DNA of 64,000 nt from contig JBBIOB010000010.1 in assembly GCA_037443565.1 (NCBI GenBank), forward strand, positions 1,329 to 65,328, read 5' to 3'. Below are positions 4,987 to 57,604 of this stretch, piece by piece. Numbering within the stretch: position 1 is the stretch's first letter; every line of letters starts with the position of its first letter. The position numbers and the translations under genes were made by a program. The DNA is from Armatimonadota bacterium (GTDB lineage Bacteria; Sysuimicrobiota; Sysuimicrobiia; Sysuimicrobiales; Humicultoraceae). Under the pieces are notes generated by a model. That model ran no database searches. It was not told the DNA's origin and worked only from the letters and a program-made list of their open reading frames with translations.

Positions 4987-5502
4987 GTGCGCGTGATGAA
5001 GGTCCGCCGGGTCGCGCTCGACCAGCAGAACAACCCGGTCGTGCTGCTGGTCGACGAGGAAGAGACCATGGCCCTGCCGATCTGGATCGGCCAGGCCGAA
5101 GCGATGGCCATCGCGATGCGCCTGCAGGGGGTCCAGCCGCCGCGGCCGATGACCCACGACCTCCTCCAGACGGTCCTGGAGCAGCTCTCGGCCAAGGTCA
5201 CGCGCATCGTCGTAAGCGACGTGCGCGACCAGACGTACTTCGCCGAGATCCACCTGGCCCGCAACGGCTCGGCCCTGGTCATCGACTCCCGACCCAGCGA
5301 CGCGATCGCGCTCGCGTTGCGGGTCGACGCGCCGATCTTCGTCGAGGACAAGGTCGCCTCCCAGGCGATCACGCTGCGCAAAACCCGGAAGGGCGACGGG
5401 GAAGGTCTGACCGAGGAGCCCGGCGAGGAGCTCGACCCGCAGGAGTTCAGGAAGTTCCTCGAGCGCGTCAAGCCCAGCGACTTCGAAGGTCCCGTGCACT
5501 AA
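4987..5502 (+). CDS. Bifunctional nuclease (BFN/DUF151) domain protein
   Basis: BFN-domain pattern (…PVVLLVDEEETMALPIWIGQAEAMAIAMRLQG…RPSDAIALALR…). Start could be GTG at 4987 or ATG at 4993. Confidence 0.55.
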   Translation: MRVMKVRRVALDQQNNPVVLLVDEEETMALPIWIGQAEAMAIAMRLQGVQPPRPMTHDLLQTVLEQLSAKVTRIVVSDVRDQTYFAEIHLARNGSALVIDSRPSDAIALALRVDAPIFVEDKVASQAITLRKTRKGDGEGLTEEPGEELDPQEFRKFLERVKPSDFEGPVH

Positions 5503-5541
5503 CAGCGGGCCGGCGTCCGCCGGCCCGCCGGACGCGGTGTT

Positions 5542-6222
5542 CTATCGCTCGAAGTCCACGTACACGGCGCCGGCCATCTCGGCGCCGACGCGCTTCGGAC
5601 GGCCTTCAACGCGCACGTCGACGTGACGGGCGCCGGCCGACATCACCTCGAACTCCACGCCCGGCAACAGCCCCGCGGCCGTCAGGTCGCGGACGACCTT
5701 CTCATCCCGATCGCTCACCCGCACAATGAGCCCCCGCTGCCCCGGCCTGGCCGAGGAGAGGGCGTGCGCCGCCGGCGTCGCCATGGCGCCGTCGCGCGAC
5801 GGGATGGGATCGCCGTGGGGGTCGAGGTCGGGCTGCCCGAGCGCGCCCGCGATGCGTTCTTCGAGGTCCTCGGAGATGACGTGCTCCAGACGGTCCGCTT
5901 CGTCGTGCACGCGGTCGAGGCTCACCCCCAGGTGCCGGCTGAGGTAGAGCTCGAGCAGCCGGTGATGGCGGATGACCTCGAGGGCCACCTTCTCGCCGGC
6001 CTCGGTGAGCGCGACGCCGCGGTAGGGCTCGTGCCGCACGAGGCGCAGCCTGGCCAGGCGCTTCATCATGTTTGTCACCGACGCCGGAGAGACGCCCAGG
6101 CGCACGGCCAGGCCGTTCGTGGTGACGCGGGCCTCGCCCTGGGCGATCATGTAGATCGCCTTGAGGTAGTCTTCGATGGCCTGGCTGAGCGGCGCGGTCA
6201 TGGCGGCCCCCTCGTCTCTCAT
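5542..6222 (-). CDS. DtxR/IdeR/MntR-family metal-dependent transcriptional repressor with C-terminal FeoA/SH3-like domain
   Basis: N-terminal winged HTH (QAIEDYLKAIYMI…), a metal-binding/dimerisation domain, and a C-terminal FeoA-like domain. Likely start is MTAPLSQ near 6201. Confidence 0.8.
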   Translation of the reverse strand: MRDEGAAMTAPLSQAIEDYLKAIYMIAQGEARVTTNGLAVRLGVSPASVTNMMKRLARLRLVRHEPYRGVALTEAGEKVALEVIRHHRLLELYLSRHLGVSLDRVHDEADRLEHVISEDLEERIAGALGQPDLDPHGDPIPSRDGAMATPAAHALSSARPGQRGLIVRVSDRDEKVVRDLTAAGLLPGVEFEVMSAGARHVDVRVEGRPKRVGAEMAGAVYVDFER

Positions 6223-6252
6223 CCTGCCACAAACAGGCCGGTCACGTACATG

Positions 6253-8400: not shown

Positions 8401-8591
8401 ACGAACCCGCGCCAGATACCCACCGAAGCGATCGTAGCCTAAAACGGGCCGGCCTCACTCGGGTGACGACCGCAGGCGCACATCCGGATGGCCCCGCGCC
8501 TTAAAACCTTCTTAAACACGGGCGCGCCCGCGCCAAGCATCATGGTGATGCAGGATAGCTTCGCAGTTCATGCGAGTCAACACATCGAGAG

Positions 8592-9194
8592 GTGAGGAGC
8601 ATGGCATCCATCAAGCCGCGCCGCACGACCATCGAGGATCCGCCGCTCGCGCGGCTGCTGTTCGGAAGCACGTCCATCGCGTGGCTGTGGCTGATCGCCC
8701 GCAGCTGGCTGGGATACGTCTGGCTGACATCGGCACTGCGCAAGGTCGGCAACGCCGACTGGGTCCAGACCGGGCTCGCTGTCAGGGGGTTCTGGGAGCG
8801 CGCCGTGGCGATCCCGGAGCAGGGACGGCCGCCCATCACCTTCGACTGGTATCGCGGGTTCATCCAGTTCCTCCTGGACACCGGCAGCTACGCCTGGTTC
8901 GGCAAGCTCATCGTCTACGGCGAACTGCTCGTCGGCGTGGCGCTGATCCTGGGCGCGTTCACCGGCATCGCCGCGTTCTTCGCCGCCTTCATGAATTGGA
9001 ACTTCCTGATGGCCGGCACCGTGAGCGTCAGCCCGGTGATGCTCCCGCTGACGATCCTCGTGATCCTGGCCTGGAAGGTGGCCGGATACTACGGGCTGGA
9101 CTCCTACCTGCTCCCGCTGCTGGGGACGCCCTGGCGGAGGGGCCGGGTCTTCGAAAGAGTGCCCGAGGGCCGGCCAGCGCTCTCGCCGGAGTGA
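8592..9194 (+). CDS. DoxX family membrane protein
   Basis: DoxX-like pattern of small hydrophobic segments (…FGKLIVYGELLVGVALILGAFTGIAAF…). Confidence 0.55.
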   Translation: MRSMASIKPRRTTIEDPPLARLLFGSTSIAWLWLIARSWLGYVWLTSALRKVGNADWVQTGLAVRGFWERAVAIPEQGRPPITFDWYRGFIQFLLDTGSYAWFGKLIVYGELLVGVALILGAFTGIAAFFAAFMNWNFLMAGTVSVSPVMLPLTILVILAWKVAGYYGLDSYLLPLLGTPWRRGRVFERVPEGRPALSPE

Positions 9195-9215
9195 CCTCCG
9201 GGGGGCGCGGGATGA

Positions 9216-9420
9216 GTGTCGATTGTGATCGGTCTGGCGGCGTTCCTCGTCGTCAACCCGCTCCTCGCGCTGCGCGCGCCCACGCCGGCAGTCCCCGAGA
9301 CCGGCGACGTCCGCCGTGTCGTGGTGACTATGGCCGGATTCGAGCCTGGCGCGATCCGCGTGCCTGCCGGCGCACCGTTCGCCGTGCACCTCGTCAACCC
9401 CGACAGTCCCTACCCCGGCG
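9216..9420 (+). pseudogene. N-terminal fragment of a cupredoxin (signal peptide plus first beta-strands); remainder apparently displaced to 29331..29513
   Basis: RVVVTMAGFEPGAIRVPAGAPFAVHLVNPDSP aligns with the N-terminal half of the intact cupredoxin at 32796 (SVEVTMRDFAFEPRTIQVRAGTVNFVLTNQGG). After ~9411 the reading frame no longer looks like a cupredoxin. Confidence 0.4.
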
Positions 9421-9616
9421 GGGCCGGAACCAAACAGGGCCGGCTCCGCCGGGGTAGGAATGCGGGGAGCTGCCCGGGCGGCGCCAGGTCGTCAGGCAGG
9501 GGACCCGACCCTGAACGCCCCAGGCGGAGGGCGCCCGGCCAGAGCACGGCCCCCAGGCCCACGACGGCCGCGAGGATCGCACAGGCCAGAAGTGCCGCTC
9601 GGGTACGCCCCATCAC
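9410..9616 (-). CDS. Small membrane-anchored hypothetical protein, start overlapping the stop of the MoeZ-like gene
   Basis: ATGTGATG stop/start overlap with the upstream gene, and an N-terminal TM helix (AALLACAILAAVVGLGAVLW). No recognisable family. Confidence 0.25.
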   Translation of the reverse strand: MMGRTRAALLACAILAAVVGLGAVLWPGALRLGRSGSGPLPDDLAPPGQLPAFLPRRSRPCLVPAPPG

Positions 9617-10791
9617 ATGGCTCCCCCTCCACGGCCCTGCGGCTCGACCGGGAGCTGCGCGTTCGTCCAGGCGGTGATCCCTCCCGCCAGGTTGAAGGCT
9701 CTCGGGTGGCCGTGCGCCTGCAGCCAGACGGCGATCTCGGCGCTACGCTGACCGACCGCACAGTACACCACCACAGGGCGACCCGGCGGGATCTCGCTGT
9801 ACCGTTCGGGCACCTGCCCCTTGGGGATGAGGACCGCCCCGGGGATGCGCACCACTTCCCACTCCCAGGGCTCGCGGACGTCCAGCAGGAAGGCACCGTC
9901 CTCCTGCACCAGTCTGGCAGCTTCCTCGGGTGACGCCTCGACGACGGGAGGTGCCGCCGCCTCCGCGGCCGCATGGCGGCCGGGCACCCCGCAGAACTGG
10001 TCGTAGTCGATCAGATCGCGGATGGTCGGCCGGTCCCCGCAGACCGGGCAGTCGGGATTCCGGTGCCAGCGCAGCGTGCGCACCTGCCCCTCCAGGGCGT
10101 CGAAGAGGAGCAGGCGGTTGACCAGCACGTCGGGCTGGCCCAGCAGCACCTTGATGGTCTCGATGGCCTGCAGCGTGCCCATGAAGCCGGCCAAGGCGCC
10201 GATGACCCCTGCCTCGGCGCAGCTCGGCACCGCGCCGGGCGGCGGCGGTGCCGGGAACAGGCACCGGTAGCAGCCGCGCCCCGGCAGGTAGACGGTGAAC
10301 TGGGCCTCCCATCGGAGCACGCTGGCGTCCACCAGCGGCCTGGCGAGGAGCACGCAGGCATCGTTGACCAGGTAGCGGGTGGGGAAGTTGTCGCTGCCGT
10401 TGACGACCATGTCAAAGCCCCTGATGATGTCGAGGGCATTGTCCCTGGTCAGGGTCGTCTGGAAGGGGGTCACGGTCACATCAGGGTTGACATCTTCGAG
10501 CGTGCGGCGGGCCGACTGTGTCTTCGGCCGGCCGAGATCGTGCGTGAAGTGGAGGATCTGCCGGTGGAGGTTGGTGAGGTCCACCCGGTCGCCGTCCACG
10601 ATGCCCAGGGTGCCGACCCCTGCTGCCGCCAGATAGAGGCACGCCGGACAGCCCAGTCCGCCCGCGCCGACAACGAGCACGCTGCTGTCCAGCAGGCGGC
10701 GCTGCCCGGCGACGCCGACCTCTTCCAGGATGACCTGGCGCGAGTAGCGCTGGAGCTGCTCGCTGGTAAGGAGGCGCGTGGTCACGCTCAT
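9613..10791 (-). CDS. moeZ: MoeB/ThiF-family adenylyltransferase fused to a C-terminal rhodanese domain (MoeZ-like sulfur-carrier adenylyltransferase/sulfurtransferase)
   Basis: E1-like nucleotide-binding motif (VLVVGAGGLGCPACLYLAAAGVG), zinc CxxC pairs (CYRC…CPVC) and a C-terminal rhodanese domain with active Cys (VVVYCAVGQRS). Likely start is MSVTT at 10791. Confidence 0.8.
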   Translation of the reverse strand: MSVTTRLLTSEQLQRYSRQVILEEVGVAGQRRLLDSSVLVVGAGGLGCPACLYLAAAGVGTLGIVDGDRVDLTNLHRQILHFTHDLGRPKTQSARRTLEDVNPDVTVTPFQTTLTRDNALDIIRGFDMVVNGSDNFPTRYLVNDACVLLARPLVDASVLRWEAQFTVYLPGRGCYRCLFPAPPPPGAVPSCAEAGVIGALAGFMGTLQAIETIKVLLGQPDVLVNRLLLFDALEGQVRTLRWHRNPDCPVCGDRPTIRDLIDYDQFCGVPGRHAAAEAAAPPVVEASPEEAARLVQEDGAFLLDVREPWEWEVVRIPGAVLIPKGQVPERYSEIPPGRPVVVYCAVGQRSAEIAVWLQAHGHPRAFNLAGGITAWTNAQLPVEPQGRGGGAM

Positions 10792-11045
10792 GGCCGGGCC
10801 TCCGCGCTCTGGAGGCCCTCGGGTGGGCCCTGTGTGCGCGTGATCCGGATCCGCCACTGGCCGGGCCCCTCCTCTTCGATGGCGCACCGATAGCCGAGCC
10901 GAGAGGTGTAGAAGGGGATCGACTCCAGCGCCGGCGGATGGTCGGTGAGCACCTCGAGGTGCTCACCCTGGGCCAGCGTTCGAAGGACCTCGACCGTCTT
11001 CATAATCGGATAGGGGCAGATCTCGCCCCGCACGTCCAGCTCCAT
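10788..11045 (-). CDS. TusA-family sulfurtransferase
   Basis: CPxP active-site motif (MELDVRGEICPYPIMKT). The 4-nt stop/start overlap with the MoeZ-like gene suggests translational coupling. Confidence 0.7.
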   Translation of the reverse strand: MELDVRGEICPYPIMKTVEVLRTLAQGEHLEVLTDHPPALESIPFYTSRLGYRCAIEEEGPGQWRIRITRTQGPPEGLQSAEARP

Positions 11046-11069
11046 TGGAATCCCTCCCATTCCATCTCG

Positions 11070-12293
11070 TCACGGGATGCGCCTGATGATCTGCACCCCC
11101 ACCCACGCGCCGGCAGCCAGGGACAACGCGAACACCCAGCCGTTGAGGGCCAGCGAGGGAACAGCCGAGAAGAACGCACCCAGCGTGCACCCCATGGCCA
11201 GGGTGGCGCCGTAGCCCATGAGGATCCCACCGCCCAGGGCCTGCAGGTAGCGCCGCCGCTCCTTGGGCCGGCGCAGCCGGAACTCTCCGGCCAGCAGTGC
11301 GCCGGCAAAGGATCCGGCCACCATGCCGACGTTGAGCGTCAGCGTGTGGGTAAGCCAGGGGCCACCGGTGGCGGCCAGCGCGCAGGCGGCCAGTTCCTCC
11401 GCGCCCTTCAGCGGGCCCGGGCCCCATCCGGCCAGGGTGAGGAGCCCCATGGACCATCGGGAGATCTCCCCGGTCACCCCCCACGGCATGTGGGCCGTGT
11501 AGAGAAACACATTGAGCACACCCAGGGCGATCCCGCCGGCTGCCGGCGACCATCCCCGCACGCAGACCGCGCGCAGCCCGGCATCCACCCGGTCCCGGAA
11601 GCTCCGGGCGAGGAGTGGCGCCGGCGGCTCCGGAGAGGCGAACCCCTGGCGCGCCTCCCACCAGGTGACCAGCAGGTACGCTGCAGCCAGCAGGGCCACA
11701 GTGCCCGCCACCGCGGCGCCATAGCCGCCGGCGCCGGGCAGCCACACCAGTGGGCCGCGCTCAATACTGGTGCGCCACCAGAAGTTCCATGTGTGCGCCC
11801 CCAGCCCCAGTCCGGCCATGATGCCCACCAGGGCTACCCCGGAGGCCACGTAGCCCTCCCCGATCCGGTACATCGACCCTGAGACGCAGCCTCCGGCGAC
11901 GACCATGCCGATGCCAAACATGAGGCCGCCTGTGACGAGGTGCACTCCCAGCGGAATGACGTGGGCCTCGGGCGCGATCGCGCCCAGGCCAGGATCTGGG
12001 ACCATGCGGTTCATCAGCACTACGAAACCGGCGGTCGCCACCGCCAGGCCGCCCAGGATGCCTCGCATGACCCGTCCGGACCCAAACAGGAACAGATCGC
12101 GAAAGGCCGAGGCGAAGCAGAACCGGCTGCGCTGCAGCACGAACCCGAATGCCAGGCCGAAGAGCCAGAACAGGCCCGAGCGCGGGTCCGCCCGGGAGGT
12201 GAGCGTGGCGATCGCGGCAGCAGCCACGAGCGCACCGGTCCCCAGGAGCAGCAGGCGCGGCAAATCGGTCCTGGTCGATACGGTGCCCCTCAT
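11070..12293 (-). CDS. YeeE/YedE family thiosulfate/sulfur-compound transporter (two-repeat form)
   Basis: Two YeeE/YedE repeats, each with the conserved cysteine in a …RFCFASAF…-type motif. Polytopic membrane protein. Confidence 0.8.
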   Translation of the reverse strand: MRGTVSTRTDLPRLLLLGTGALVAAAAIATLTSRADPRSGLFWLFGLAFGFVLQRSRFCFASAFRDLFLFGSGRVMRGILGGLAVATAGFVVLMNRMVPDPGLGAIAPEAHVIPLGVHLVTGGLMFGIGMVVAGGCVSGSMYRIGEGYVASGVALVGIMAGLGLGAHTWNFWWRTSIERGPLVWLPGAGGYGAAVAGTVALLAAAYLLVTWWEARQGFASPEPPAPLLARSFRDRVDAGLRAVCVRGWSPAAGGIALGVLNVFLYTAHMPWGVTGEISRWSMGLLTLAGWGPGPLKGAEELAACALAATGGPWLTHTLTLNVGMVAGSFAGALLAGEFRLRRPKERRRYLQALGGGILMGYGATLAMGCTLGAFFSAVPSLALNGWVFALSLAAGAWVGVQIIRRIP

Positions 12294-12336
12294 CGCGTCA
12301 CCTCACAGTCCGTCTCCGAAGGGGCCACTCCAAGGG

Positions 12337-13257
12337 TCACCTCCGGACCGGCAGATCGGGGCGGTTCCCCCACTCCTCCCAGCTCCCGTCGTAGTTCCGG
12401 ACCTGCGGGTGGCCCAGCAGGTATCTCAGCACGAACCACGTGTGGGCGGAGCGCACGCCTGTCTGGCAGTAGGTAATGATCTCCCTGTCCTTCGGCACGC
12501 CTGCCCGGGCGTACAGCGCTCGTAGCTCCCTGACGGCCTTGAACGTCCCGTCCGGGTTGGTCGCCAGCGGCCAGTCCACGTTCACGGCTCCGGGGATGTG
12601 GCCGCCCCTCGCGGAACGCACGTCCAACCCAGCGTACTCCCTGGGGCTGCGGGCGTCGAGGAGGAATGCCTTGCCCAGCCTGGCCCGGATGTAGTCGGCC
12701 GTAGCGTTGATGCCGTCGTCGCGCTGCCCTGCCACATAGGACGACGGCTGAACCGCCGGCACGTCGGTGACGAGCGAACGGCCGTCTGCGGCCCACCTCG
12801 CGCTGCCGCCGTCCAGAATCGCCACCCGCCCGTGCCGGTAGAGCTTGAAGACCCAAAACGCCCGCGCGGCGTAGAGGCTCCTGGCGTCGTCGTACAGGAT
12901 GACGGCGTCGGTGTTGCGTATCCCCAGCCGGCGCATGAGGGCCTGGAACTGCTCCCCGGTGGGCGCCATGCCCTTCATTGGATGCGTGGGATCTACCAGG
13001 TCGGTCATGACGGAGACGTAGGTGGCCCCGGGCAGGTGGCCCCGCTCGTAGACCTCCCGGGTGGTGCTCACGTCGATGAGGCGCAGATCCGGCCTCGCGA
13101 GGTTGGCAGCCAGCCAGGCTGGATCGACCAGCACCTGAGCCCCGGCGAGGCCGCCCGCGGGCTGGGCCATCGACGGAGGAACGGCTAGTCCGATGAGCAG
13201 GCCCCACAGTATGGCATTCCACAGGATCATCCGGCGCATTGTCCTCACCCCCCACAT
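12337..13257 (-). CDS. Secreted tandem-domain rhodanese (thiosulfate/3-mercaptopyruvate sulfurtransferase, SseA-like)
   Basis: Signal peptide followed by two rhodanese domains, the second with the active-site loop (ITYCQTGVRS). Start is either 13257 or 13239. Confidence 0.8.
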   Translation of the reverse strand: MWGVRTMRRMILWNAILWGLLIGLAVPPSMAQPAGGLAGAQVLVDPAWLAANLARPDLRLIDVSTTREVYERGHLPGATYVSVMTDLVDPTHPMKGMAPTGEQFQALMRRLGIRNTDAVILYDDARSLYAARAFWVFKLYRHGRVAILDGGSARWAADGRSLVTDVPAVQPSSYVAGQRDDGINATADYIRARLGKAFLLDARSPREYAGLDVRSARGGHIPGAVNVDWPLATNPDGTFKAVRELRALYARAGVPKDREIITYCQTGVRSAHTWFVLRYLLGHPQVRNYDGSWEEWGNRPDLPVRR

Positions 13258-13679
13258 GGTGTGAAGTCCGGGTGGAACCGGGATCCGTCGACCCCAGCCT
13301 CCCTGGGCAGTCTTTCCTAGCTGGAGCTCAGTTAGAAGATGCGGGCGATATGATGGCCGCGAAGGCTAGGCCTTCGCGACGCACAGATGCAGTCGCGCGG
13401 GCGGCGGATCCGCCCCCGATGTGGCGAGGTCGGCACGGAGGTGATCTGACTCATGCGGCGACAACCGGTACGTATTGAAGGTGTGTGTAGCACATCGGGA
13501 TCGGCGTGGCAATCGGGTGGCCGCCCGATGCGGGGCTCGCGAGCTGTCCCGACACCTGGTGGCGTCTCTGGTCGCCGGGCACAGCGGAGGTTGACATCCG
13601 TCTCCGATCGGGGATCGGTCCTCCGCCTGATGGTGTCTTCCGCTGAGGCCCGTATACGCTAGGGCCAAATCGGCAGGCA

Positions 13680-15899
13680 GTGGTGGCGGGGATGAGCCTG
13701 CGCAGGCGGATCATGCTGCTGGTGGCGATTGGGCTGATCATCGCCACGGCCCCCCTCGGCGTCATGGGCGTCGGGATGCTCCGCGCGGCCAAGGAACGCA
13801 TGCTGGCGGAGCGACTCGCCCTGACTCGCGCCACGGTGGAGCACCTCAACTGGCGACTGGCGCGAAGCTGGGAGCAGCTCGAGGCGCTCAGCCGGCTCAT
13901 CATCCCTCTCTGGCGGGCGGGGGATCTGGATGCCATGCGCGCGGCGGTTGTCGCCGTGGTCCCTCAGTTGACGCTTTTCACCGGCGGGGTCTTCCTGGTC
14001 GATTCCACCGGACGTCTGGCATTCCAGGAACCCGCCGAGCCTGCGCTGTCCCTGCCCGCCGCTGCGCTGTCGTCCTCGATGAGGAAAACCCTGGCGGAGG
14101 GACGCCCTGCCGTCAGCGGCCTGGTCCGCACCACGACCGGGACTCCTGTGGTGATCTTCACGGTGCCGGTGTCGCAGGTGGCGGACGCGCCGGGAGGCGC
14201 CCTCGGCGGAGTCCTCAGCCTGACCGATGAGACGCTCCAGGCCTTTGTCAGGGGCATGGCCATTGGCGTCAGCGGGCACGCCGTGATCGTGAACGAGGAC
14301 GGTCTCATCCTGGCCAGCACCGATCCCGCAGAGCTGTTCACCTACGAGGAGCACCCCGAGTTCTTCGTGGAGCTGATCCGCGGCCGACGCGCGCTGGTCG
14401 GCTCGACCGAGAAGACCATCGGCCCGACCGGCTCCACGGAGACCCACGTGATGGCCTTTGCCCCTCTGGACGCTGTCCCCTGGGGCCTTGCCGTCGGCCA
14501 GAATGAGGAAGAGACGTTCGGCCCGATCCGCCGGCTCCGCGATCGGATCGTCCTCTTCGGTGTGGCCGTCCTCCTGGCCGCGCTCGTCTTTGCCTGGCTG
14601 GACACGGAGGCGGCGACCGCTCCGCTTCGTTTGCTGAAGGAGAGCGCGGAGCGGATTGCCGGGGGCGATCTGGCGCGGCGCATCGAGGTGCGGCGCGCCG
14701 ACGAGATCGGCGCCCTGGCCCGGAGCTTTGAGGCGATGCGGGGCCGGCTCCTCCATTCGCTCGACGAGATCCACCGCCGGGCAGAGGCCTCGCAGTCGCT
14801 CTACCACATCGGCACCGAGGTGCTGAGCCTCCAGGATCGGGATGCCGTCCTCCAGTCCGTCGCGACCCGCGCGGCCTCCCTGCTGGGCGGCGACATCGCC
14901 GTCGTCTGCCTCATCGATGAATCGGGGCGTACCGCCACCGTGCAGGCCGCGGCCGGCCCCGGCCTGGAGCTCCTCCGCTCCACCGGGCCGGTTGCCGTGT
15001 CGGTCGGGGAAGACGGCCTGGCATGCGCGGGGTGCCCGCTCGTGGACACCACGGCGCTGAAGGCGCACGCCGCGGCCCCCCTCGTGGTCGCCGGGCGGAT
15101 GGTCGGCGCGCTCTGCGTGGGCGCGTGGAGCGAGGGCGCGTTCACGCCCCATGAGCGCGAGGTCCTGGGCGGGCTCGCCAACCTGGCGGCCATGGCCGTC
15201 GAGAATGCCCGCCTCCAGGAACGCGTGCTGTCGATGGCGGTGGTGGACGAGCGCGAGCGGATCGCCCGGGAGATGCACGACAGTGTCGGGCAGCTGCTGG
15301 GCTACGTCAACACGAAGGCCCAGGCCGTCCGGGTGCTGCTCGACGTGGGGAAGACCGGTGACGCACAGACGCAGCTCGCCCAACTCGAGCAAGCGTCGCG
15401 CGAGATCTATGCGGACCTGCGGGAAGCCATCCTGGGACTCCGGGCGGAGGTCTCGCCGGATCGGCGGCTCGTCCCGGTACTCGAGGAGTACGTGCGTCGG
15501 TTCAGCGAGTTGAGCGGGCTGGCCACCGAGCTGCGCGTGGAAGGTGATCCAGGCCGCTACGCCTTGAGCCCGACGACAGAGCTTCATCTCATCCGGATCA
15601 TCCAGGAGGCCCTGACCAACGTACGGAAGCACGCGATGGCGCGGCGCGCCTGGGTCCAGTTCTCGGAGCAGGACGGTACCCTGACCGTGTCGGTGAGGGA
15701 TGACGGCCAGGGATTCGATCCCGACCGCGGGCCGGGAGGCACATGGCCCAGGTTTGGGATGCAGACGATGCGTGAGCGGGCGGAGGCGATCGGCGGCACG
15801 TTCCTGGTCCGCTCGCAGAGCGGCTCGGGGACCGAGATCGTGGTCCGCATTCCTACCTCGGGGAGGCCTGTGCGCGGTGCGCGTCCTGTTGGTGGATGA
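13680..15899 (+). CDS. Sensor histidine kinase with N-terminal sensor/TM, HAMP, GAF and HisKA_3-HATPase (NarL-partner type)
   Basis: HAMP region ([29 protein letters not shown]), a GAF-like segment, the HisKA_3 H-box ([16 protein letters not shown]) and an ATPase G-boxes region ([10 protein letters not shown]…[18 protein letters not shown]). Confidence 0.75.
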
Positions 15900-16020
15900 C
15901 CACCCGCTGTTCCGTGACGGTGTCCGCAGTCTCCTGCAGGCGCGGGGCGTGGAGGTCGTCGGAGAAGCGGGCGACGGCCAGGAGGCCTTCGAGGCGGCGT
16001 TGCGCATGAACAGAACACCC
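15877..16020 (+). pseudogene. Truncated response-regulator receiver domain (first ~48 aa only), overlapping the kinase stop
   Basis: [45 protein letters not shown] is a typical NarL-family REC N-terminus. After ~16010 the frame becomes non-REC sequence and no LuxR HTH follows. Confidence 0.4.
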
Positions 16021-16179
16021 ATGAGTGCGGCCACCGCCGGCCGGGGTACCATGCGCGGGGCCCCGCCCGTGACACGCAGGACTGCCCATACGGTGGCCAC
16101 GGCGAGGGGCAGCCCCATCAGGACCTCCGCGCCGCCGATGCGAAAACCCGTGAGGCCGTAGTTCAGGTGCGGGACGTGC

Positions 16180-16766
16180 GTGGCGTACAGCGCGGCGGCG
16201 AACGCCGCCGCGCGCAGCAGGGTCGACGGCTGGGCTACATGCTCTACAACTTTCGCCTTCTACCTCTTCGGGGCGGCGTTCAACCAGCTCTTCCTGGTCT
16301 ACGCCGCCCTCGTACCGCTCTCGGTGCTGGCGCTCATCTTCGGGCTGGTCGGGAGCGACGTCACGGCCCTTAGCCGGACCTTCCGGGGCCGGCTCCCGGC
16401 GAAGTGGATCAGCGGGTTCATGCTGCTGGTGGCCGCCGGTCTGAGCGCCACCTATGCGGCGCAGTCTCTGGCCTTCATCACCACGGGCAACTGCCACCCG
16501 TGGTGGTGAACACCGGGCACCCTACCAGCGTGGTCTTCGCCCTGGACCTCTCCCTGGTGGTCCCGTTCTTCGTCCTGGGAGCGATCTGGCTGTGGCGGCG
16601 CCGGCCGTGGGGCGCGGCCTACATGCTGGCCCTCACCGCCGCCACTGTGTCTGGGGCGAACGCCGGCGGCTCTACCGCCCTGGTTCCTCTTTGGGCCTCA
16701 ATTGGCGCGGTCAGCCTGATCGTAGCCGTGCTCCTGCTCCGCGATATGCGCACGGCGGAGACGTAG
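16180..16766 (+). pseudogene. Disrupted membrane protein of unknown family (frame switch near 16500)
   Basis: Two consecutive hydrophobic protein-like ORF pieces in different frames (…FAFYLFGAAFNQLFLVYAALVPLSVLALIFGLVG… and …VVFALDLSLVVPFFVLGAIWLWRRRPWGAAYMLALTAA…). Either a frameshift or a sequencing error. Confidence 0.3.
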
Positions 16767-17203
16767 TCCAACGCAGGGCCGTGCCCGCCCGGATTGGTGC
16801 TACGGCCGCCAGATCAGCCCCAGGATCGACGGCTCCCTCGGCCGAGAAGGTGTGGCTGCCGCCGAGGGTGGTGGTCGGCGCCTGTTCGGCTCGGACTTCA
16901 CCTTCTGGCTGCTGGTGACCAGGCTGCGGTCCCTGTACCCGGACAGGAGGACGGGGCCACATCAGTCGCGCGCCTGATCCTCCTCCTACGCTACCGGCGG
17001 TCGGCCAGTGGCCTGAGTCAGAATCAAGTGATGCAACCTTCGTGCGTCTTGATCAGGCGCGTAGTGAGATGCGTTTTGTGTCACCCGTCCACGGCCGAGG
17101 CCACGCGCTCCTGGAATGAAGAGGCCACCCGAGAAAGGCCAACGCAGCGGGCGATGGAGAGGGTGGGGGACAACACGTAGATGGTAGTCGCAGCGACTAC
17201 AAT

Positions 17204-49704: not shown

Positions 49705-52700
49705 GTGACCGAGCCCGCGACCCCGCGGCGAGCACCGCATCCGGCGCTGGACGAATTCCACGCGCCCGTGCGGGCGTGGTTCGCCGCGTCGTTCGAGGCG
49801 CCCACACGCGCGCAGGAGCTCGGCTGGCCCGTCATCCGGGCGGGTGAGTCGGCGCTGATCATCGCGCCGACCGGATCGGGTAAGACGCTGGCCGCCTTCC
49901 TCGCGGCGATCGACCGCGTGATGTTTGAGCCTCCGCCAGCGGCCTACGCCCGCTGCCGCGTGCTGTACATCTCGCCGCTGAAGGCCCTGGCGGTTGACGT
50001 GGATCGCAACCTGCAGGCGCCGCTGGCCGGGATCGCCCGGTTCGCCGAGCGCGCAGGCGCGGTGGCGCAGATGCCCGCGGTCGCGGTTCGCACCGGCGAC
50101 ACGCCGCCTGGGGAGCGCGCGCGGTTCATCCGGCAGCCTGCCGATCTCCTGATCACCACGCCCGAGTCGCTCTACCTGATGCTGACGAGCCGGGCCCGCG
50201 AGGCGCTGCGCGCGGTCCGCTGGGTGATCGTGGACGAGGTGCACGCGCTCGTCGGCACGAAACGCGGCGCGCACCTGGCGCTCTCGCTGGAACGCCTCGC
50301 GGCGATCGTGTTGCAGCCGCTGCAGCGCATCGGGCTGTCGGCCACGGTCCGGCCTCACGAGGAAGCCGCCCGGTTCCTGGGCGGGTTCGACGACGCCGGG
50401 ACGCCCCGACCGGTGCAGATCGTGGACGCCGGCCGGATCAAACGGCTCGACCTAACCGTGGAGGTCGCGGTCGAGGATATGGCCCGCCTGGGCGAGGCAG
50501 CGGACGCCCCGGGCAGGCCGGACTCGGAAGGGCAGGGGCCGGCGAGCATCTGGCCGGCCGTGCACCCGCGCATCCTCGAGCTGGTCCGGCAGCACCGCTC
50601 CACGCTGATCTTCGTCAACAGCCGCCGGCTGGCCGAGCGCCTGGCCAGTGCGCTCAATGAGCTGGCCGGCGAGGTCGTCGCACACGCGCATCATGGGTCG
50701 CTCTCCAAGGAACGGCGCCTCGCCATCGAGGAACGGCTGAAGGCCGGCGACCTGCCCGCGCTGGTCGCCACGTCGTCGCTCGAGCTCGGCATCGACATGG
50801 GCGCAATCGACCTGGTCATCCAGGTCGAGGCGCCGCCCAGCGTGACGAGCGCCATCCAGCGCATCGGCCGGTCGGGCCACACGCTCGATGCGCCGAGCAC
50901 CGGCGTCATCCTGCCGAAGTACCGCGGCGACCTGCTGGCCTGCGCCGCGCTCACCGGGCAGGTGCGCGCGGGCGCCGTCGAAGCCGTCTGCTACCCGCGG
51001 CTGCCGCTCGATGTCCTCGCCCAGCAGATCGTCGCGATGGTCGCCGCGGACGAGTGGCGGGTGGACGACCTCGAGCACACCGTCCGGCGCGCGGCGCCGT
51101 TCCAGGACCTCAGCCGCGCCTCGTTCGAGGGCGTGCTCGACATGCTGGCCGGCCGCTACCCCTCCGATGAGTTCGCCGACCTACGCCCCCGCATCGTCTG
51201 GGACCGCGCGACCGGCCTGCTGCGGCCGCGCGAGGGCGCCAAGCGCGTCGCCATCGAGAACGGCGGCACGATTCCCGACCGCGGCCTGTACGGGGTGTTC
51301 CTGGCCGGGGCGGAGCCCGGGCGCGGCCGCGTGGGCGAGCTCGACGAGGAGATGGTGTTCGAGAGCCGCCCGGGCGACACGTTCATCCTGGGCGCCAGCA
51401 CGTGGCGGATCGAGGAGATCACGCACGACCGGGTCCTCGTGTCGCCGGCGCCGGGTGAGCCCGGACGGATGCCGTTCTGGCACGGGGACATCTCGGGACG
51501 GCCGCTCGAGTTCGGCCGCGCGATCGGCGCGATGACGCGAACGCTGCTGGAGATCCCTGAGGCCGCTGCGATCCGGCGCCTGATCGAGCAGCATGCGCTG
51601 ACCGAGACTGCGGCGCGCAACCTAGTCCAGTACCTGTACGACCAGGTCGAGGCCGCGGGCGCGGCGCCCGACGACCGGACGCTGGTGGTCGAGCGCTTCA
51701 AGGACGAGATGGGCGACTGGCGGGTCTGCGTGCTGTCGCCATTCGGCGGCCGCATCCACGCGCCGTGGGCGATGGCGATCGGCGCACGCGTGCGGCGGCG
51801 GTACGGCGTCGAGCTGGACATCCTCTGGACCGACGACGGCATCGTGGTGCGCTTCCCCGACGTCGACCAGCCGCCGCCGACCGACCTGCTCTTTCCCGAC
51901 GCGGACGAGGTCGAGGACCTGGTCGTCGAGCAGCTCGGCGCCGGCACCGGTGCGCGGCAGGCTCAGCTCGGCGCGCCGGCGACCGCGCTGTTCGCGTCGC
52001 GGTTCCGCGAGGCCGCCTCGCGCGCGCTGCTGCTGCCCCGGCGCTTTCCCGGCCAGCGGGTCCCGCTGTGGCAGCAGCGCAAGCGCGCCGCCGACCTGCT
52101 GCGGGCCACCGCGCGGTTCGGGTCGTTCCCCATCATCCTGGAAGCCTACCGCGAGTGTCTGCGCGACGTCTTCGACCTCTCCGGCGTGCGGGAGCTGCTG
52201 CGCGCGGTCGCGGGCCGGGAGGTGCGCGTGGTGACCGTGGACACGCGCACGCCCTCGCCGTTTGCCGCGGCGCTGCTGTTCACCTACATCGCCAACTTCA
52301 TGTACGAGGGTGATGCGCCGCTGGCCGAGGCCCGGGCCCAGGCGCTGCTGGTGGACCCGGCGCAGCTGCGCGACCTGCTGGGCGTCGTCGAGCTGCGGGA
52401 GTTGATCGACGGCGAGGCGCTGGATGCCCTGGAGCTCTCGCTCCAGCACCTGACGCCCGAGCGCGCGGCCCGGCACCCCGACGGGCTCTGCGACCTGCTG
52501 CGCGACCTCGGCGACCTGTCGCTCGAAGAGATCCGGGCGCGTGCGGATCAGGGCGCCGAGGTCGCGGCCTGGGTCGAGCGCCTGGAGCACGAGCGGCGGG
52601 TCGTGCGCCTCGAGATCGCCGGCGAGCCGCGCTACGTGGCGGTCGAGGATGTGGCGCGCTACCGCGACGGGCTGGGCATTCCGGCGCCGCCCGGGGTACC

Positions 52701-54249
52701 GGCCGCGTTCCTGGAACCGGCGCACGAGCCCCTGGGCGATCTCGTCGCCCGCTACGCGCGGACGCACGGGCCCTTTGCCGCGCACGAACCGGCGCGCCGC
52801 CTCGGGCTCGACGTCCCCGCGGTGACGGCCGTGCTCCGCCGGCTCGAGGCCGCCGGCCGCGTCGTCTCCGGGGAGTTCCGCCCGCATGGGACAGGCCGTG
52901 AGTGGTGCGAGGCCGGCGTCCTGGCTACGCTGCGGCGGCGGTCGCTCGCGCGGCTGCGCCACGAGGTCGAGCCGGTCGAGCCGGCGGCGCTGGGCCGCCT
53001 CTACCTCGAGTGGCACGGCATCACCGCGAAGCGCCGCGGCCAAGAGGGACTGCTGACGGCGCTGCGCGGGCTACAGGGCGCGGCGCTGCCGGCGTCGGTC
53101 TTCGAGCGCGACATCCTCCCGGCCCGACTGACCGACTACGATCCGCGCATGCTCGATACGCTCACCGCGTCGGGCCAAGTCGTGTGGATGGGCATCGAGC
53201 CGCTCGCGCCGCGCGACGGCCGGATCCGTCTGTTCCTGGCCGAGCAGATGCCGCTCCTGCTGACGCCGCCCCCGGGTCCTCCGCCGGACGGTCCCGCACA
53301 CCGGAAGATCCGCGACGCGCTCCGCGCGCGCGGTGCCCTGTTCTTCCCTCAGCTCCTGCAGGCGATTGGCGGCGGGTTCGTCCCGGACGCGCTGCAGGCG
53401 TTGTGGGATCTGGTGTGGGCCGGTGAGATCACCAACGACACGCTCGCGCCGCTGCGCGGCTATGTGAACCCGCGGCGCCGGCGGATGCGCGATGGATCGT
53501 CGACGCGCGCGCGCCTGCAGCGCCCCGGTCTCGTCGACGCGGGCCTGGGGCTCCCCGCCGAAGCATCGGGCCGGTGGTCGCTGGTCGGCAGCCTAGTCAT
53601 CCGCGAGCCGACGGTCACCGAGCGAGCCGCCGCACGCGTCCGGCAACTGCTCGAACGGCACGGCGTGCTCACGCGCGAGGCGATCGCAGCCGAGGGGCTC
53701 GACGGCGGATTCACCGCGGCCTATGGCATCCTCAAGGCCATGGAAGACGCCGGCCGCGTGCGCCGCGGCTACTTCGTGGCCGGACGAGGGGCCACGCAAT
53801 TCGCGCTGCCCGGCGCGGTCGACCGGCTGCGGGCCCTGCGCGAGCCGGTCGCCGCCGGGGCCGTGCTGCTGGCTGCCACCGATCCGGCAAACCCGTACGG
53901 GGCGGCCATCCCCTGGCCCGAGCGGCAGGGCGGAAGTGGAGGCCGGCGGCCGGCGCGATCGGCGGGCGCCTTCGTGGTGCTCGTCGACGGCGCGCTGGGT
54001 GCCTGGCTCGCACCAAGAGAGCACCAGATGCTGACGTTCTTCGATGCGGCCGGCGATCGCGCGGAGGCCCTCGCGCGCGCCGTGGCCCGATGCCTGTCGC
54101 GCGACGCAGGAGTCGGCCCGGCAGGTGCGCTGTCGCTCGAGGAGATCGACGGACAGGCCGCTGCCGAGTCCCCGTTGGCGCGCGCGCTCCGCGAAGCGGG
54201 ATTCGCGGCGACCCCGCGCGGCTTCCTCTGGCGCGCGCAGGCCGGGTAG
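49705..54249 (+). CDS. lhr: Lhr-family ATP-dependent DEAD/DEAH-box helicase (large helicase-related protein)
   Basis: Walker A (APTGSGKTLAAF), DEVH, helicase C motifs, and a long Lhr-type C-terminal extension (~1514 aa). Confidence 0.85.
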   Translation: MTEPATPRRAPHPALDEFHAPVRAWFAASFEAPTRAQELGWPVIRAGESALIIAPTGSGKTLAAFLAAIDRVMFEPPPAAYARCRVLYISPLKALAVDVDRNLQAPLAGIARFAERAGAVAQMPAVAVRTGDTPPGERARFIRQPADLLITTPESLYLMLTSRAREALRAVRWVIVDEVHALVGTKRGAHLALSLERLAAIVLQPLQRIGLSATVRPHEEAARFLGGFDDAGTPRPVQIVDAGRIKRLDLTVEVAVEDMARLGEAADAPGRPDSEGQGPASIWPAVHPRILELVRQHRSTLIFVNSRRLAERLASALNELAGEVVAHAHHGSLSKERRLAIEERLKAGDLPALVATSSLELGIDMGAIDLVIQVEAPPSVTSAIQRIGRSGHTLDAPSTGVILPKYRGDLLACAALTGQVRAGAVEAVCYPRLPLDVLAQQIVAMVAADEWRVDDLEHTVRRAAPFQDLSRASFEGVLDMLAGRYPSDEFADLRPRIVWDRATGLLRPREGAKRVAIENGGTIPDRGLYGVFLAGAEPGRGRVGELDEEMVFESRPGDTFILGASTWRIEEITHDRVLVSPAPGEPGRMPFWHGDISGRPLEFGRAIGAMTRTLLEIPEAAAIRRLIEQHALTETAARNLVQYLYDQVEAAGAAPDDRTLVVERFKDEMGDWRVCVLSPFGGRIHAPWAMAIGARVRRRYGVELDILWTDDGIVVRFPDVDQPPPTDLLFPDADEVEDLVVEQLGAGTGARQAQLGAPATALFASRFREAASRALLLPRRFPGQRVPLWQQRKRAADLLRATARFGSFPIILEAYRECLRDVFDLSGVRELLRAVAGREVRVVTVDTRTPSPFAAALLFTYIANFMYEGDAPLAEARAQALLVDPAQLRDLLGVVELRELIDGEALDALELSLQHLTPERAARHPDGLCDLLRDLGDLSLEEIRARADQGAEVAAWVERLEHERRVVRLEIAGEPRYVAVEDVARYRDGLGIPAPPGVPAAFLEPAHEPLGDLVARYARTHGPFAAHEPARRLGLDVPAVTAVLRRLEAAGRVVSGEFRPHGTGREWCEAGVLATLRRRSLARLRHEVEPVEPAALGRLYLEWHGITAKRRGQEGLLTALRGLQGAALPASVFERDILPARLTDYDPRMLDTLTASGQVVWMGIEPLAPRDGRIRLFLAEQMPLLLTPPPGPPPDGPAHRKIRDALRARGALFFPQLLQAIGGGFVPDALQALWDLVWAGEITNDTLAPLRGYVNPRRRRMRDGSSTRARLQRPGLVDAGLGLPAEASGRWSLVGSLVIREPTVTERAAARVRQLLERHGVLTREAIAAEGLDGGFTAAYGILKAMEDAGRVRRGYFVAGRGATQFALPGAVDRLRALREPVAAGAVLLAATDPANPYGAAIPWPERQGGSGGRRPARSAGAFVVLVDGALGAWLAPREHQMLTFFDAAGDRAEALARAVARCLSRDAGVGPAGALSLEEIDGQAAAESPLARALREAGFAATPRGFLWRAQAG

Positions 54250-54253: not shown

Positions 54254-55363
54254 CTATCGCGCCCCCAACACCCCCTGCGCGATGCGCGCGCTCAAGACCG
54301 CGAAGACCGCGATCTCGAAGGCGACCGTGAGCAATCCGTACAGCGCCAGGGAGCCGCTGCGAGAGACGCCGCTCGCCGGCCGGCCGCGCGCCCGAACCCA
54401 GGCCATCAGCGCCCGCCGGGCACGGGGCTCCAGACCCGGCTCGCCCAGCATCTCGCTCAGCAGGTAGGCCCCGTCGGTCCGCAGCGCGGGGAGCAGGTTC
54501 CAGACAGTGCGCAGCAGGGCCGCGGTCGCCACCGACCACGAACGATCGTCCAGACCCGGGACGATCCAGCCCGCAAAGAGCGCCGCGGATCCCAGCAGCC
54601 CGTCTGCCAGCGGCCCGGCTGCGGCGATCTTCAAGCGCGCGCGTCGCGGCAGCAGGATGAGATCTGGGATCTCGATACACAGCAGGACCCGCCACCGCTG
54701 CTGGGCGATGCTGATACTGCGTACACGTCCGCCGTGTAAGAGGGCCGCCATCCCGTGCGCGAGCTCATGCCCGACCCCCATCAGCCATGCGAGCGACACG
54801 GTGACCGGCAGGCCATCCCACAGCCGTGCCAGGGACAGGGATGCGTGAAGCGCATCGCTGCGCCCCAGGGCTCCCAGGGTGCCTCCGACGACGAGCCCCG
54901 CGAGCGCGGCGGTGATCAGGCTCGGTGGAACCAGCTTCAGCAGCCCGCAGAGCGGCTCCAGCAGGGGTGTGGGATCGAAGAGACGCACCCTCCGGGTGTT
55001 CCCCCGGGTGCTCGCGCGCGTGTTCCCGAGCGCGGTCCCGCGGGTGCTCGCACCCGCTGGGGGCACCGATGCAGCGGGCCCTTCCAGAACGCCCTCCTCC
55101 GCCAGGCGCGCGACGAACCGCGCGACCAGCGGGGCGGCATCCACCTCAGGACGTCGTGCCCGGACAGCCGTCTCCAGGTCGGTCAGCGTCCGGGCGCCGT
55201 CGCACAGGGAGAGGAGCAAGGCCGCCGGCTCATCGACCAGGAGATGCCGACCCTCGGGCGTCCGGATGATCCAGGCCCCTGCCCGCCGGGCAATCTCCAC
55301 GGGCCGCACCGTGACGCCAGCCCGAAGTCGCGGACGCTGCGGGGACGAGGTCAGTTCGTCCAC
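54254..55363 (-). CDS. RRE (PqqD-like) domain fused to an M50/site-2-protease-like membrane zinc metalloprotease; putative leader peptidase of the TOMM cluster
   Basis: N-terminal PqqD/RRE-like region (…AGAWIIRTPEGRHLLVDEPAALLLSLCDGARTLTDLETAVR…FVARLAEEGVLE), then TM segments carrying HELAH and the M50 NxxPxxxxDG motif (NLLPALRTDG). The long upstream extension in the ORF track (to 56197) overlaps the ABC-2 permease and was rejected. Confidence 0.6.
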   Translation of the reverse strand: MDELTSSPQRPRLRAGVTVRPVEIARRAGAWIIRTPEGRHLLVDEPAALLLSLCDGARTLTDLETAVRARRPEVDAAPLVARFVARLAEEGVLEGPAASVPPAGASTRGTALGNTRASTRGNTRRVRLFDPTPLLEPLCGLLKLVPPSLITAALAGLVVGGTLGALGRSDALHASLSLARLWDGLPVTVSLAWLMGVGHELAHGMAALLHGGRVRSISIAQQRWRVLLCIEIPDLILLPRRARLKIAAAGPLADGLLGSAALFAGWIVPGLDDRSWSVATAALLRTVWNLLPALRTDGAYLLSEMLGEPGLEPRARRALMAWVRARGRPASGVSRSGSLALYGLLTVAFEIAVFAVLSARIAQGVLGAR

Positions 55364-56073
55364 CGGAACCGCGTCACCGCCACCACGCTCCCAGCGACAC
55401 CCCACGCGGCCAGTACGGCCAGGTCGGTCAGAACCTCGTGGAGCCCGACCCCGGCGGCCGCCGCGCGGATCCCGTGGAGGAAGTATGTGAGCGGCAGCCC
55501 CTTCGCAAGGTACCCCAGGATCTCCGGGAGCCGGTCGGTCGGAAAGTACGCGCCGCTGAGGAACGTCATGGAGAAGAACAGCAGCGACGCGATCGAGCCA
55601 GCGCTCTCCACCGAGGGCGCGAGCCCGCCGATCGCCAGCCCGGATGCCAAGAACGCCGGAATGCCGACGGCCAGAACCGCGACGAGCGTCAGGACATCCG
55701 CGGAGAGGCGGGCGCCGAACAGGAGCACGCCGAGCCCCGCCAGTTCGACGCCGACGCACAAGACGACGAGCGCGCGCAGGAGCATGTGCGCCGCCACGAA
55801 CTGCCAGGCGGGAATGGGCACCAGGGCGAGCCGTTTGAGGAAGCCGCTGCGGCGGTGGTGGGCGACCACCACGCCGACGCTGTAGAACGACATGGAGGCC
55901 AGGACCATCCCCAGCAGGCCGGGGATCAGGAACTGCACGTGCCCCGGCCGCTGAAACACGCTGCCGAGCAGCGCCAGGAGGAACGCCGGGAAGAAGAACG
56001 TCCAAAAGACGGCCTGGGGCGTTCGCCGGAACAGCCTGGCTTCCATGACGAGCGCGGCCCACACGTGCCTCAT
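55351..56073 (-). CDS. ABC-2 type transporter permease
   Basis: Six hydrophobic helices; ATGA overlap with the upstream ATP-binding gene. The ORF-track N-terminal extension was ignored. Confidence 0.65.
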   Translation of the reverse strand: MRHVWAALVMEARLFRRTPQAVFWTFFFPAFLLALLGSVFQRPGHVQFLIPGLLGMVLASMSFYSVGVVVAHHRRSGFLKRLALVPIPAWQFVAAHMLLRALVVLCVGVELAGLGVLLFGARLSADVLTLVAVLAVGIPAFLASGLAIGGLAPSVESAGSIASLLFFSMTFLSGAYFPTDRLPEILGYLAKGLPLTYFLHGIRAAAAGVGLHEVLTDLAVLAAWGVAGSVVAVTRFRWTN

Positions 56074-56804
56074 GGCGGGCCGCTCGCTTTCCCGGCATCG
56101 TCCGTGAGCGCCAGGAAGACCCCTTCGAGGCCTCCCCGGCCCATCGCGGCGACCTCCGCCGGCGGCCCGGTGGCGATGACTCTCCCGCGGTGGACAATCG
56201 CCACGCGGTCGCACAGCGCCTGGGCTTCCTCGAGGTGATGGGTGGCGAGCAGCACGGTCCGGCCCTGAGCCTTGAGGTCTCTGATCATCCCCCACAACGC
56301 CTGACGGGCATGGGCATCCAATCCGGCCGTGGGCTCGTCCAGCACCACGAGCTCCGGCTCCCCGACAAGCGCCAGGGCGAGGAGGAACCGGCGACGCTGG
56401 CCACCCGACAGCCGCCCGTACATCCTTGCTGCCTCAGACGTGAGCCCAACGCGGTCGAGGAGGACCGGGATGGCTGCCCGGCGGGGATAGAAGGAGCCAA
56501 GGAACATCAGCGCCTCAGCGAGTCGCATGTACGGGTTGAAGACCTCTTCCTGGAGCTGCACCCCGATGCGCCTCCTGAGATTCAGATTGTCGCGGTGGGG
56601 ATCGAGCCCGAGCACGCGAATCGAACCGGCGTCAGGCCGCAGCAGCCCGACCATGGTTTCAATGGCCGTCGTCTTCCCGGCACCATTGCGCCCCAGGAGG
56701 CCGTAGACTTCTCCGTGCCTAACGACGAGATCCAGCCCATCGAGGGCCACAACCGACCCGTATCGCTTGCGCAGGCCCGAGATCTCTATAGATGGATGCG
56801 CCAC
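56070..56804 (-). CDS. ABC transporter ATP-binding protein
   Basis: Walker A (GRNGAGKTT), signature (LSGGQRRR), Walker B (LVVLDEPTAGLD). Confidence 0.85.
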   Translation of the reverse strand: MAHPSIEISGLRKRYGSVVALDGLDLVVRHGEVYGLLGRNGAGKTTAIETMVGLLRPDAGSIRVLGLDPHRDNLNLRRRIGVQLQEEVFNPYMRLAEALMFLGSFYPRRAAIPVLLDRVGLTSEAARMYGRLSGGQRRRFLLALALVGEPELVVLDEPTAGLDAHARQALWGMIRDLKAQGRTVLLATHHLEEAQALCDRVAIVHRGRVIATGPPAEVAAMGRGGLEGVFLALTDDAGKASGPP

Positions 56805-56808
56805 GGCT

Positions 56809-57597
56809 CTATCCTTTCGGCCGGCCTATAGCGACGGCATACAGCGCGCTGGCATGCACACCATCCAGCCCCAGCGCGGCATCCAGCGCGGCGTCGTCCC
56901 AACCGCCGAGGGCCACGGCCCCCAGGCCCAGGGCGGCCCCGGCCAGATATGCGTTCTGCGCCATGTGTCCAGCCTCGAGGAGCACAAAGCGATACCCCCT
57001 GCCCCCATACACCTCGGCCGTACGCTCGAAGACCGCCGCCAGCACGATCAGCAGACCGGCGCGCTCGACGAGCGCCGGGTACGCGCAGGCGGCGAGCAGC
57101 CCGCTCAGGGGCATCGTGGGTTCAGGCAGCATCTCTGCGGCGCCGTGGCGGGAGGGCTCGTAATGGTACGGTCCATGCCCCCGGCCATCGGGCGGCGTCG
57201 GCAGCCAGAAGAAGGTCTCGATCGGATAGCGTGCGCCGGCAGATGGGGCTGTTCGTCTGCGATGCTCTGCGCCGTCGGCAGGCAGCAGGCCGGCCGTCGC
57301 CCACAATATCGTCGACGTCTCCTCCCAGCGCAGCGGCGACCCGGCGAACTCCCTCGCCGACCGCCTGGCCAGCAGCGTGTGCCGCAACGACGCGGAGAGA
57401 CCGTCGCTGCTCAGCGGCTCAGGCAGCGCCAGGAACGGCCGGCGTCGGAACTGCCAGGCAGATGGCCGTTCCATGCGCACGGGCGCCGCGGCCCGACGCC
57501 TGACCTCAGTCCACTCCATGGATCGCCACTTGCTATTCTGGTGAAAGACCATCCAGAGCGGCTGGTCCGGGGCCAGGCGGGCGTCGAACCGCGTCAT
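56809..57597 (-). CDS. SagB-type (nitroreductase-family) FMN dehydrogenase of a TOMM/azoline-forming RiPP pathway
   Basis: Nitroreductase-fold hallmarks (RRSAREF…, …LEAGHMAQNAYLAGAALGLGAVALGG) and a position directly downstream of YcaO. Confidence 0.7.
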   Translation of the reverse strand: MTRFDARLAPDQPLWMVFHQNSKWRSMEWTEVRRRAAAPVRMERPSAWQFRRRPFLALPEPLSSDGLSASLRHTLLARRSAREFAGSPLRWEETSTILWATAGLLPADGAEHRRRTAPSAGARYPIETFFWLPTPPDGRGHGPYHYEPSRHGAAEMLPEPTMPLSGLLAACAYPALVERAGLLIVLAAVFERTAEVYGGRGYRFVLLEAGHMAQNAYLAGAALGLGAVALGGWDDAALDAALGLDGVHASALYAVAIGRPKG

Positions 57598-57604
57598 GGT
57601 CTCC

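Follow-up and report, generated by a model that had tools for sequence, protein, structure and literature searches.

The stretch of DNA analysed here, called the window, is 64,000 nucleotides long and contains a seven-gene operon on its reverse strand. The operon begins with a poly-cysteine precursor peptide, continues with a C protein, a YcaO protein, a SagB protein, an ABC ATPase and an ABC-2 permease, and ends with a gene that fuses a leader-recognition (RRE) domain to an M50/site-2-type membrane protease. The genes, and the features of the fusion, are as follows.

60036..60149 (-): precursor peptide, 37 aa, MDLEILELEEGDVLFDGDGGGAG-CCCCCCCC-IGGDIM; the whole peptide is MDLEILELEEGDVLFDGDGGGAGCCCCCCCCIGGDIM
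58933..59892 (-): TOMM C protein (E1-like) with its own N-terminal RRE; TIGR03882, 59.8 bits vs 36.9
57605..58933 (-): YcaO cyclodehydratase, the D protein; TIGR03604, 260.3 bits vs cut-off 219.25
56809..57597 (-): SagB-type FMN dehydrogenase; TIGR03605, 95.4 bits vs cut-off 78.4
56070..56804 (-): ABC transporter ATPase (DrrA-type), 244 aa; Pfam ABC_tran; a plain subunit without a peptidase domain
55351..56073 (-): ABC-2 (DrrB-type) permease, 240 aa; Pfam ABC2_membrane; its ATG overlaps the ATPase stop (ATGA)
54254..55363 (-): RRE-M50 fusion gene, 369 aa plus stop; the final gene of the operon
55070..55339 (-): RRE (PqqD-like winged helix) domain, about aa 9-98
54995..55069 (-): disordered low-complexity linker, aa 99-123; pLDDT below 50 at aa 99-119
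54257..54994 (-): aa 124-369, the membrane core of the M50/site-2 protease; contains five predicted TM helices plus a beta-hairpin (aa 216-231)
54755..54769 (-): HELAH zinc-binding/catalytic motif (H199, E200, H203), near the cytoplasmic end of TM2
54470..54499 (-): NLLPALRTDG motif, aa 289-298 (N289, P292, D297, G298)

A preliminary description of this DNA had placed the fusion in a TOMM cluster, next to an ABC exporter and with a second, separate RRE on the C protein, and all three statements agree with what was found. The YcaO, C and SagB proteins score above the curated cut-offs of TIGR03604, TIGR03882 and TIGR03605 and are accompanied by a Cys-rich precursor, the combination that defines a TOMM or linear azole peptide (LAP) cluster. 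The ABC-2 permease gene is immediately upstream of the fusion gene, and the two overlap by 13 nt. A profile of the C-protein N-termini matches the RRE of PbtF (E 8.7e-6), and hhalign aligned the cluster's two RREs, from the C protein and from the protease, with 92.6% probability; BLASTP between the same two regions gave no match. Domain assignments found no protease domain in the remaining operon genes, leaving the fusion as the operon's sole protease candidate. Scans of the sequence for promoters and terminators returned counts near those of shuffled sequence.

The precursor gene has a Shine-Dalgarno sequence, GGGAGGAGG, 8 nt upstream. Its leader, MDLEILELEEGDVLFDGDGGGAG, carries the motifs LEILELE and LFD, and the peptide has eight contiguous cysteines. 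All seven distinct precursors recovered have a run of 6-9 contiguous cysteines, and six of them have the leader pattern L[EQ][IV]xEL[ED]..[LM]LFD in full. Past the cysteine run there is a short Gly-rich or acidic tail (IGGDIM, HGNDIL, NGGEQM or GGGEVQ), and the last residue is M, L, F or Q. The product of such a precursor family would be an unusually long contiguous polythiazole. The streptolysin S precursor family (TIGR03602) was considered and rejected for the window peptide, which scores 21.9 bits against a cut-off of 35 in a match limited to the cysteine run. Related precursors are located at L009 5056-5241, L001 1465-1635, L007 3129-3257, L010 ~2981-3270 (two copies) and L011 ~2605.

The start of the fusion gene decides whether the RRE belongs to the protein at all. 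The mechanical open reading frame runs further upstream because regional GC is about 70%, and the start chosen is the GTG at 55363, from which the 13-nt overlap extends to the TGA stop of the permease gene. The N-terminus MD/VD..L..P..RLRAGVTV and the 13-nt overlap are both kept in homologs at L009 (75% identity; overlap coordinates 9938 vs 9950), L001 (52%; 6378 vs 6390) and L004 (42%; 4740 vs 4752), and therefore the start lies upstream of the RRE, as the preliminary description needed it to. The public annotation of an identical protein, P0001 (351 aa), begins at V19, leaving out 55310-55363 (-); it is probably 18 codons too short if the conserved N-terminus and the 13-nt overlap are taken as the guide, with the true start at the GTG. 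Even so, P0001 retains nearly the whole RRE, whose strand beta-1 begins at aa 18.

The N-terminal region scored as a PqqD-like RRE at the level of profiles, as the preliminary description also required. The single window sequence reaches 20.3 bits with Pfam PqqD (PF05402), below the gathering score of 23.4. A profile of nine RRE-M50 N-termini matches TfuB1 over positions 9-92 (E 4.5e-5), followed by PqqD (E 0.0019), PbtF (0.0049) and TbiB1 (0.007), and the profile of the 78-member family matches PqqD at E 8e-7 and TbiB1 at 7e-6. In the AlphaFold2 model, residues 18-89 form strands at 18-24, 27-34 and 40-43 and then helices at 45-52, 60-70 and 76-89, the three strands followed by three helices of a winged helix fold. 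Together the profiles and the predicted structure confirm the N-terminal region as a PqqD-like RRE and a putative leader binder.

The linker that follows the RRE differs in length among the RRE-M50 homologs. In the window protein (aa 99-123, 54995-55069 (-)) it is a short, imperfectly repeated low-complexity stretch, TRGTALGNTRASTRGNTRR, which is also present in P0003 and is shortened in L009 and other homologs.

The C-terminal half had been described as a protease with HExxH and NxxPxxxxDG motifs of the M50 type, and both motifs are there. With 29.0 bits, the window protein only just passes the gathering score of Pfam Peptidase_M50 (PF02163), which is 27.2. HELAH (aa 199-203) falls within a predicted helix spanning residues 185-209. 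In S2P proteases a motif of the NxxPxxxxDG type gives the third zinc ligand, an Asp. Across the 78-homolog alignment (21-79% identity), the columns of H199, E200, H203, G211, N289, P292 and D297 are invariant. The AlphaFold2 model, which was built on that alignment, has a mean pLDDT of 88.4 and a pTM of 0.85; it has five long helices of hydrophobic character, with a beta-hairpin (aa 216-231) directly after the one that carries HExxH, the core fold of an S2P protease, and the closest solved structures are RseP and SpoIVFB. On this evidence the window protein is an M50/site-2-type metalloprotease with intact catalytic residues, and it is predicted to cleave in a zinc-dependent manner.

Under an N-in topology, the cytoplasmic loops at about aa 210-245 and aa 291-336 carry eight K/R each, and the outside loops carry two and none. 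This fits an N-in protein in which the RRE and the HExxH motif would share one side of the membrane, with the predicted active site at the cytoplasmic face. The two-domain architecture of RRE and M50 protease thus stands in both the domain profiles and the model, and for a single conserved reading frame to match two domains independently is far beyond chance.

The same gene order was found in nine other distinct loci on metagenome and MAG contigs (L001-L003, which are one cluster on three contigs, L004, L005, L006, L007, L009, L010, L011 and L017), with proteases 38-76% identical to that of the window. The nearest named relative of the cluster is L017, a Candidatus Nitrosymbiomonas (Armatimonadota) MAG. 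Across these loci the protease varies more than any other gene of the operon, and its last TM helix is missing in some clade members (P0008, L011). The genes at the flanks differ, the window having Lhr, L009 a gene for cation efflux, and L001, L004, L006 and L007 a DAP_DH_C gene. Because the flanking genes differ between loci while the order within is kept, the comparison suggests that the seven-gene cluster moves as a unit.

Beyond this clade the architecture abounds in sequence databases. When 1.84 billion representative proteins were searched exhaustively with a profile, 6,359 matched at E<1e-3, 1,827 at E<1e-10 and only 6 at E<1e-30; with so few close matches, the TOMM-linked clade is therefore small and divergent. 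Among the best 150 matches, 142 span the RRE region (profile start <=50) through the protease. Family members outside the clade are about 21-29% identical to the window protein. When 78 homologs were compared with known models, Pfam M50 was matched by 76 and PqqD by 27 (both E<0.01), the daptide protease model NF041824 by all 78 and the YydH/LiaK epipeptide protease model by 71, and 37 of the 78 carry a C-terminal HlyD-type adaptor. A scan of genome contigs with the clade alignment A1 gave 39 pattern matches, none of which was confirmed.

The preliminary description had called the architecture unrecognised from characterised systems. This did not hold up: the architecture was already known, being published for daptides and captured by the NF041824 model, in addition to the 1,827 homologs at E<1e-10. 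Ren et al. (2023) discovered the daptides by way of an RRE fused to an intramembrane site-2 protease, MpaP (PMC10028931). Their initial set held 80 RRE-peptidase fusions, they termed MpaP an 'RRE-dependent intramembrane peptidase', and they assigned leader removal in daptide biosynthesis to it, without description of a protease assay (PMC10028931). The window protein shares with MpaP the N-terminal RRE, the site-2-type M50 membrane protease fused to it and a RiPP cluster that includes genes for ABC transporters. Unlike the daptide clusters, the window cluster has no DapB/C/D/M-type genes, and its RiPP class is that of a SagBCD-type azole peptide.

NF041824, named 'daptide biosynthesis intramembrane metalloprotease' in NCBIfam, aligns with aa 19-359 of the window protein over profile positions 7-340 of 379 (E 1e-25). 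The alignment scores 90.7 bits, against an equivalog cut-off of 300. The daptide tailoring genes (for a DUF-RRE protein, an oxidative decarboxylase, an aminotransferase and a methyltransferase) are not among the neighbours of the window cluster. The identity of a daptide protease was ruled out by the score below 300 bits, the lack of daptide tailoring genes and the lack of precursors ending in Thr. By its sequence the window protein is a relative of the daptide protease, not the daptide protease itself. What is new here, again judged from the sequences, is a small, divergent RRE-M50 clade tied to a SagBCD-type poly-cysteine pathway.

Other proteases resemble the window protein in part. SpoIVFB, an M50 enzyme that cleaves pro-sigmaK, differs in serving sporulation signalling and not natural-product maturation, and the accessory domain it has is a CBS domain at the C-terminus, in contrast to the N-terminal RRE of the window protein. 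The CAAX-type SagE is responsible for leader removal in streptolysin S clusters, the pathway slot proposed for the window protease. SagE and TldD/E come from protease families unrelated to M50 and, to our knowledge, carry no RRE. The lasso leader peptidase B consists of a B1 RRE and a B2 protease, fused or split (TfuB1 and TbiB1 are examples of B1), and is likewise an RRE-linked protease, but B2 is a soluble transglutaminase-like cysteine protease and not a membrane zinc protease. TldD/E (M103), known from microcin B17, removes leaders in a linear azole peptide pathway, as is proposed for the window protein, and is what a review of RiPP proteases lists for LAPs (PMC10885120). M50 enzymes mature the epipeptides (EpeP) and the pearlins (TglG, TmoG), and EpeP, of the YydH/LiaK model NF058609, is an M50 protease within the membrane that has a link to export and matures its RiPP (PMC10885120), the kind of role proposed for the window protein. 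The NF058609 model is different in being 246 positions long, which suggests that it has no RRE domain, and the window protein does not reach E 1e-3 with it. The searchable literature yielded no biochemical assay of an RRE-M50 fusion, and no paper in which an M50 protease is described or tested in a LAP/TOMM cluster.

Most likely, judging from its domains and its operon, the window protein is the dedicated leader peptidase of this SagBCD-type LAP/TOMM pathway. The reading builds on both domain identities, the intact catalytic residues, the N-in topology, the conserved operon and the lack of another protease in it. The daptide precedent speaks for it, as do the conservation of the operon, the position of the fusion as sole protease gene and the homologs that match RiPP-protease models; the sub-threshold Pfam PqqD score, the low conservation of the protease and the missing last TM helix in P0008 and L011 speak against it. 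Host proteases, too, could take off the leader in its place, as they do in other LAP systems. The preliminary description had gone further and coupled leader binding physically to cleavage at the membrane. As an account of the anatomy this is the best reading of the domains and the topology; the binding itself and the cut site we infer.

The pathway might run as follows. The 37-aa precursor would be made in the cytoplasm, where the C protein would bind the leader through its own RRE, and the C, YcaO and SagB proteins would make thiazol(in)es from the precursor's eight contiguous cysteines. The cytoplasmic RRE of the protease would then bind the conserved leader, L[EQ][IV]xEL[ED]...LFD, and the flexible tether of about 25 residues would let it bring the Gly-rich junction to the M50 site on the cytoplasmic side of the membrane. 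There the zinc site of HExxH and NxxPxxxxDG would remove the leader, and the hydrophobic polyazole core would be handed to the adjacent, translationally coupled ABC-2 exporter. Four of these points go beyond the anatomy and may be different in the cell: the binding of the leader by the protease RRE, the position of the cut, the order of events relative to heterocyclisation and the hand-off to the exporter.

Three other explanations have less support than a leader peptidase. In one, the fusion trims or degrades the released leader or cuts elsewhere, for instance in the G-rich/acidic tail at the C-terminus, and the main leader cut is made by an unlinked enzyme. In its favour, the precursors have a conserved short tail after the cysteine run, and the pearlin M50 proteases TglG and TmoG are carboxypeptidases acting on the C-terminus (PMC10885120). 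The RRE-fused daptide relatives, however, are assigned removal of the N-terminal leader (PMC10028931), and the operon offers no other protease gene. We consider this explanation unlikely.

In another, the fusion is mainly a self-immunity protein or a gatekeeper of export in a SagE-like position, where its RRE holds unprocessed precursor at the exporter and proteolysis is secondary or absent. It is the last gene of the operon and translationally coupled to the ABC-2 permease, and the HlyD-type adaptor fused to 37 of the 78 distant homologs ties the family to export. Against this, the catalytic residues are all invariant across the family, which points to an active protease; self-resistance usually comes from DrrAB-type ABC pumps themselves, and no observation made here bears on immunity. 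We take this explanation to be quite unlikely. That the fusion is a conventional site-2 protease of regulated intramembrane proteolysis, acting for example on an anti-sigma factor in a merely incidental TOMM neighbourhood, is highly improbable: signalling is the classic role of M50 enzymes and the nearest solved structures are RseP and SpoIVFB, but the protein has an RRE in place of a PDZ or CBS domain, its operon membership is kept in 10 of 10 clade loci despite the differing flanks, the window has no adjacent sigma or anti-sigma gene, and members of the family match RiPP-protease models.

If the leader-peptidase reading is extended to the whole clade, a more specific picture can be drawn, which we offer as tentative and rather doubtful. 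The clade might be the first case of an M50 leader peptidase that is guided by an RRE and dedicated to a SagBCD-type LAP pathway, with a product of 7-9 contiguous thiazoles. The RREs of the C protein and the protease might read different conserved motifs of the leader (the N-terminal LxVxELE and the downstream LFD), which would pass the peptide on in a fixed order at the membrane, from the cyclodehydratase to the protease and then to the exporter.

The finding is no new kind of system, and the functional idea of leader-guided cleavage is a reasonable one. RRE-fused M50 proteases look like a very widespread answer to the problem of leader removal in RiPP work. The window cluster is small, its seven genes including just one 37-aa precursor and one candidate for the protease. 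That could make it a simple model in which to study leader binding coupled to membrane cleavage and export, and an unusual product, with 7-9 thiazoles side by side, would become accessible through it.

The RRE-M50 module also turns up in other surroundings. A set of 80 genome loci was retrieved by similarity to YcaO; in 16 of them, all from actinomycetes, an M50 homolog lies no more than about 7 kb from the YcaO gene, and the genera include Streptomyces, Kitasatospora and Salinispora. The 16 loci are L049 (5098-17163), L065 (~4600-16983), L037, L043, L054, L058, L059, L063, L064, L067, L068, L072, L075, L077, L081 and L088. In L049 and L065 the gene order is Ocin-ThiF-like, YcaO, SagB, LanB-N, LanB-C/thiopeptide-type, M50 homolog, ABC and ABC-2, from gene calls for both loci and domain assignments for L049 alone. 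We found no description in the literature of the M50 homolog in actinomycete YcaO/LanB-type clusters. Columns 9-346 of the clade profile, a span that takes in the RRE region, align with the Salinispora M50 protein at an hhalign probability of 97.5%. As far as such alignments tell, the association of RRE-M50 homologs with YcaO is not unique to the clade of the window.

About half of the distant RRE-M50 homologs (P0011-P0080, alignment A2) are 700-850 aa long with a C-terminal HlyD/membrane-fusion adaptor domain; six homologs of this set have an FHA domain and one has a cyclic-nucleotide-binding domain. By these domain matches the RRE-M50 module occurs in several fusion forms.

On the far side of the protease gene in the window is a gene for an Lhr-type helicase (49705-54249 (+), 1,514 aa) with all four Lhr winged-helix domains. 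It is convergent with the protease gene, and the two stops are 4 nt apart. The neighbours past the operon are Lhr and a FadB-type gene. Third-position GC is about 0.8-0.9 in the cluster (54254-59900) and 0.9-0.97 in the flanking genes.
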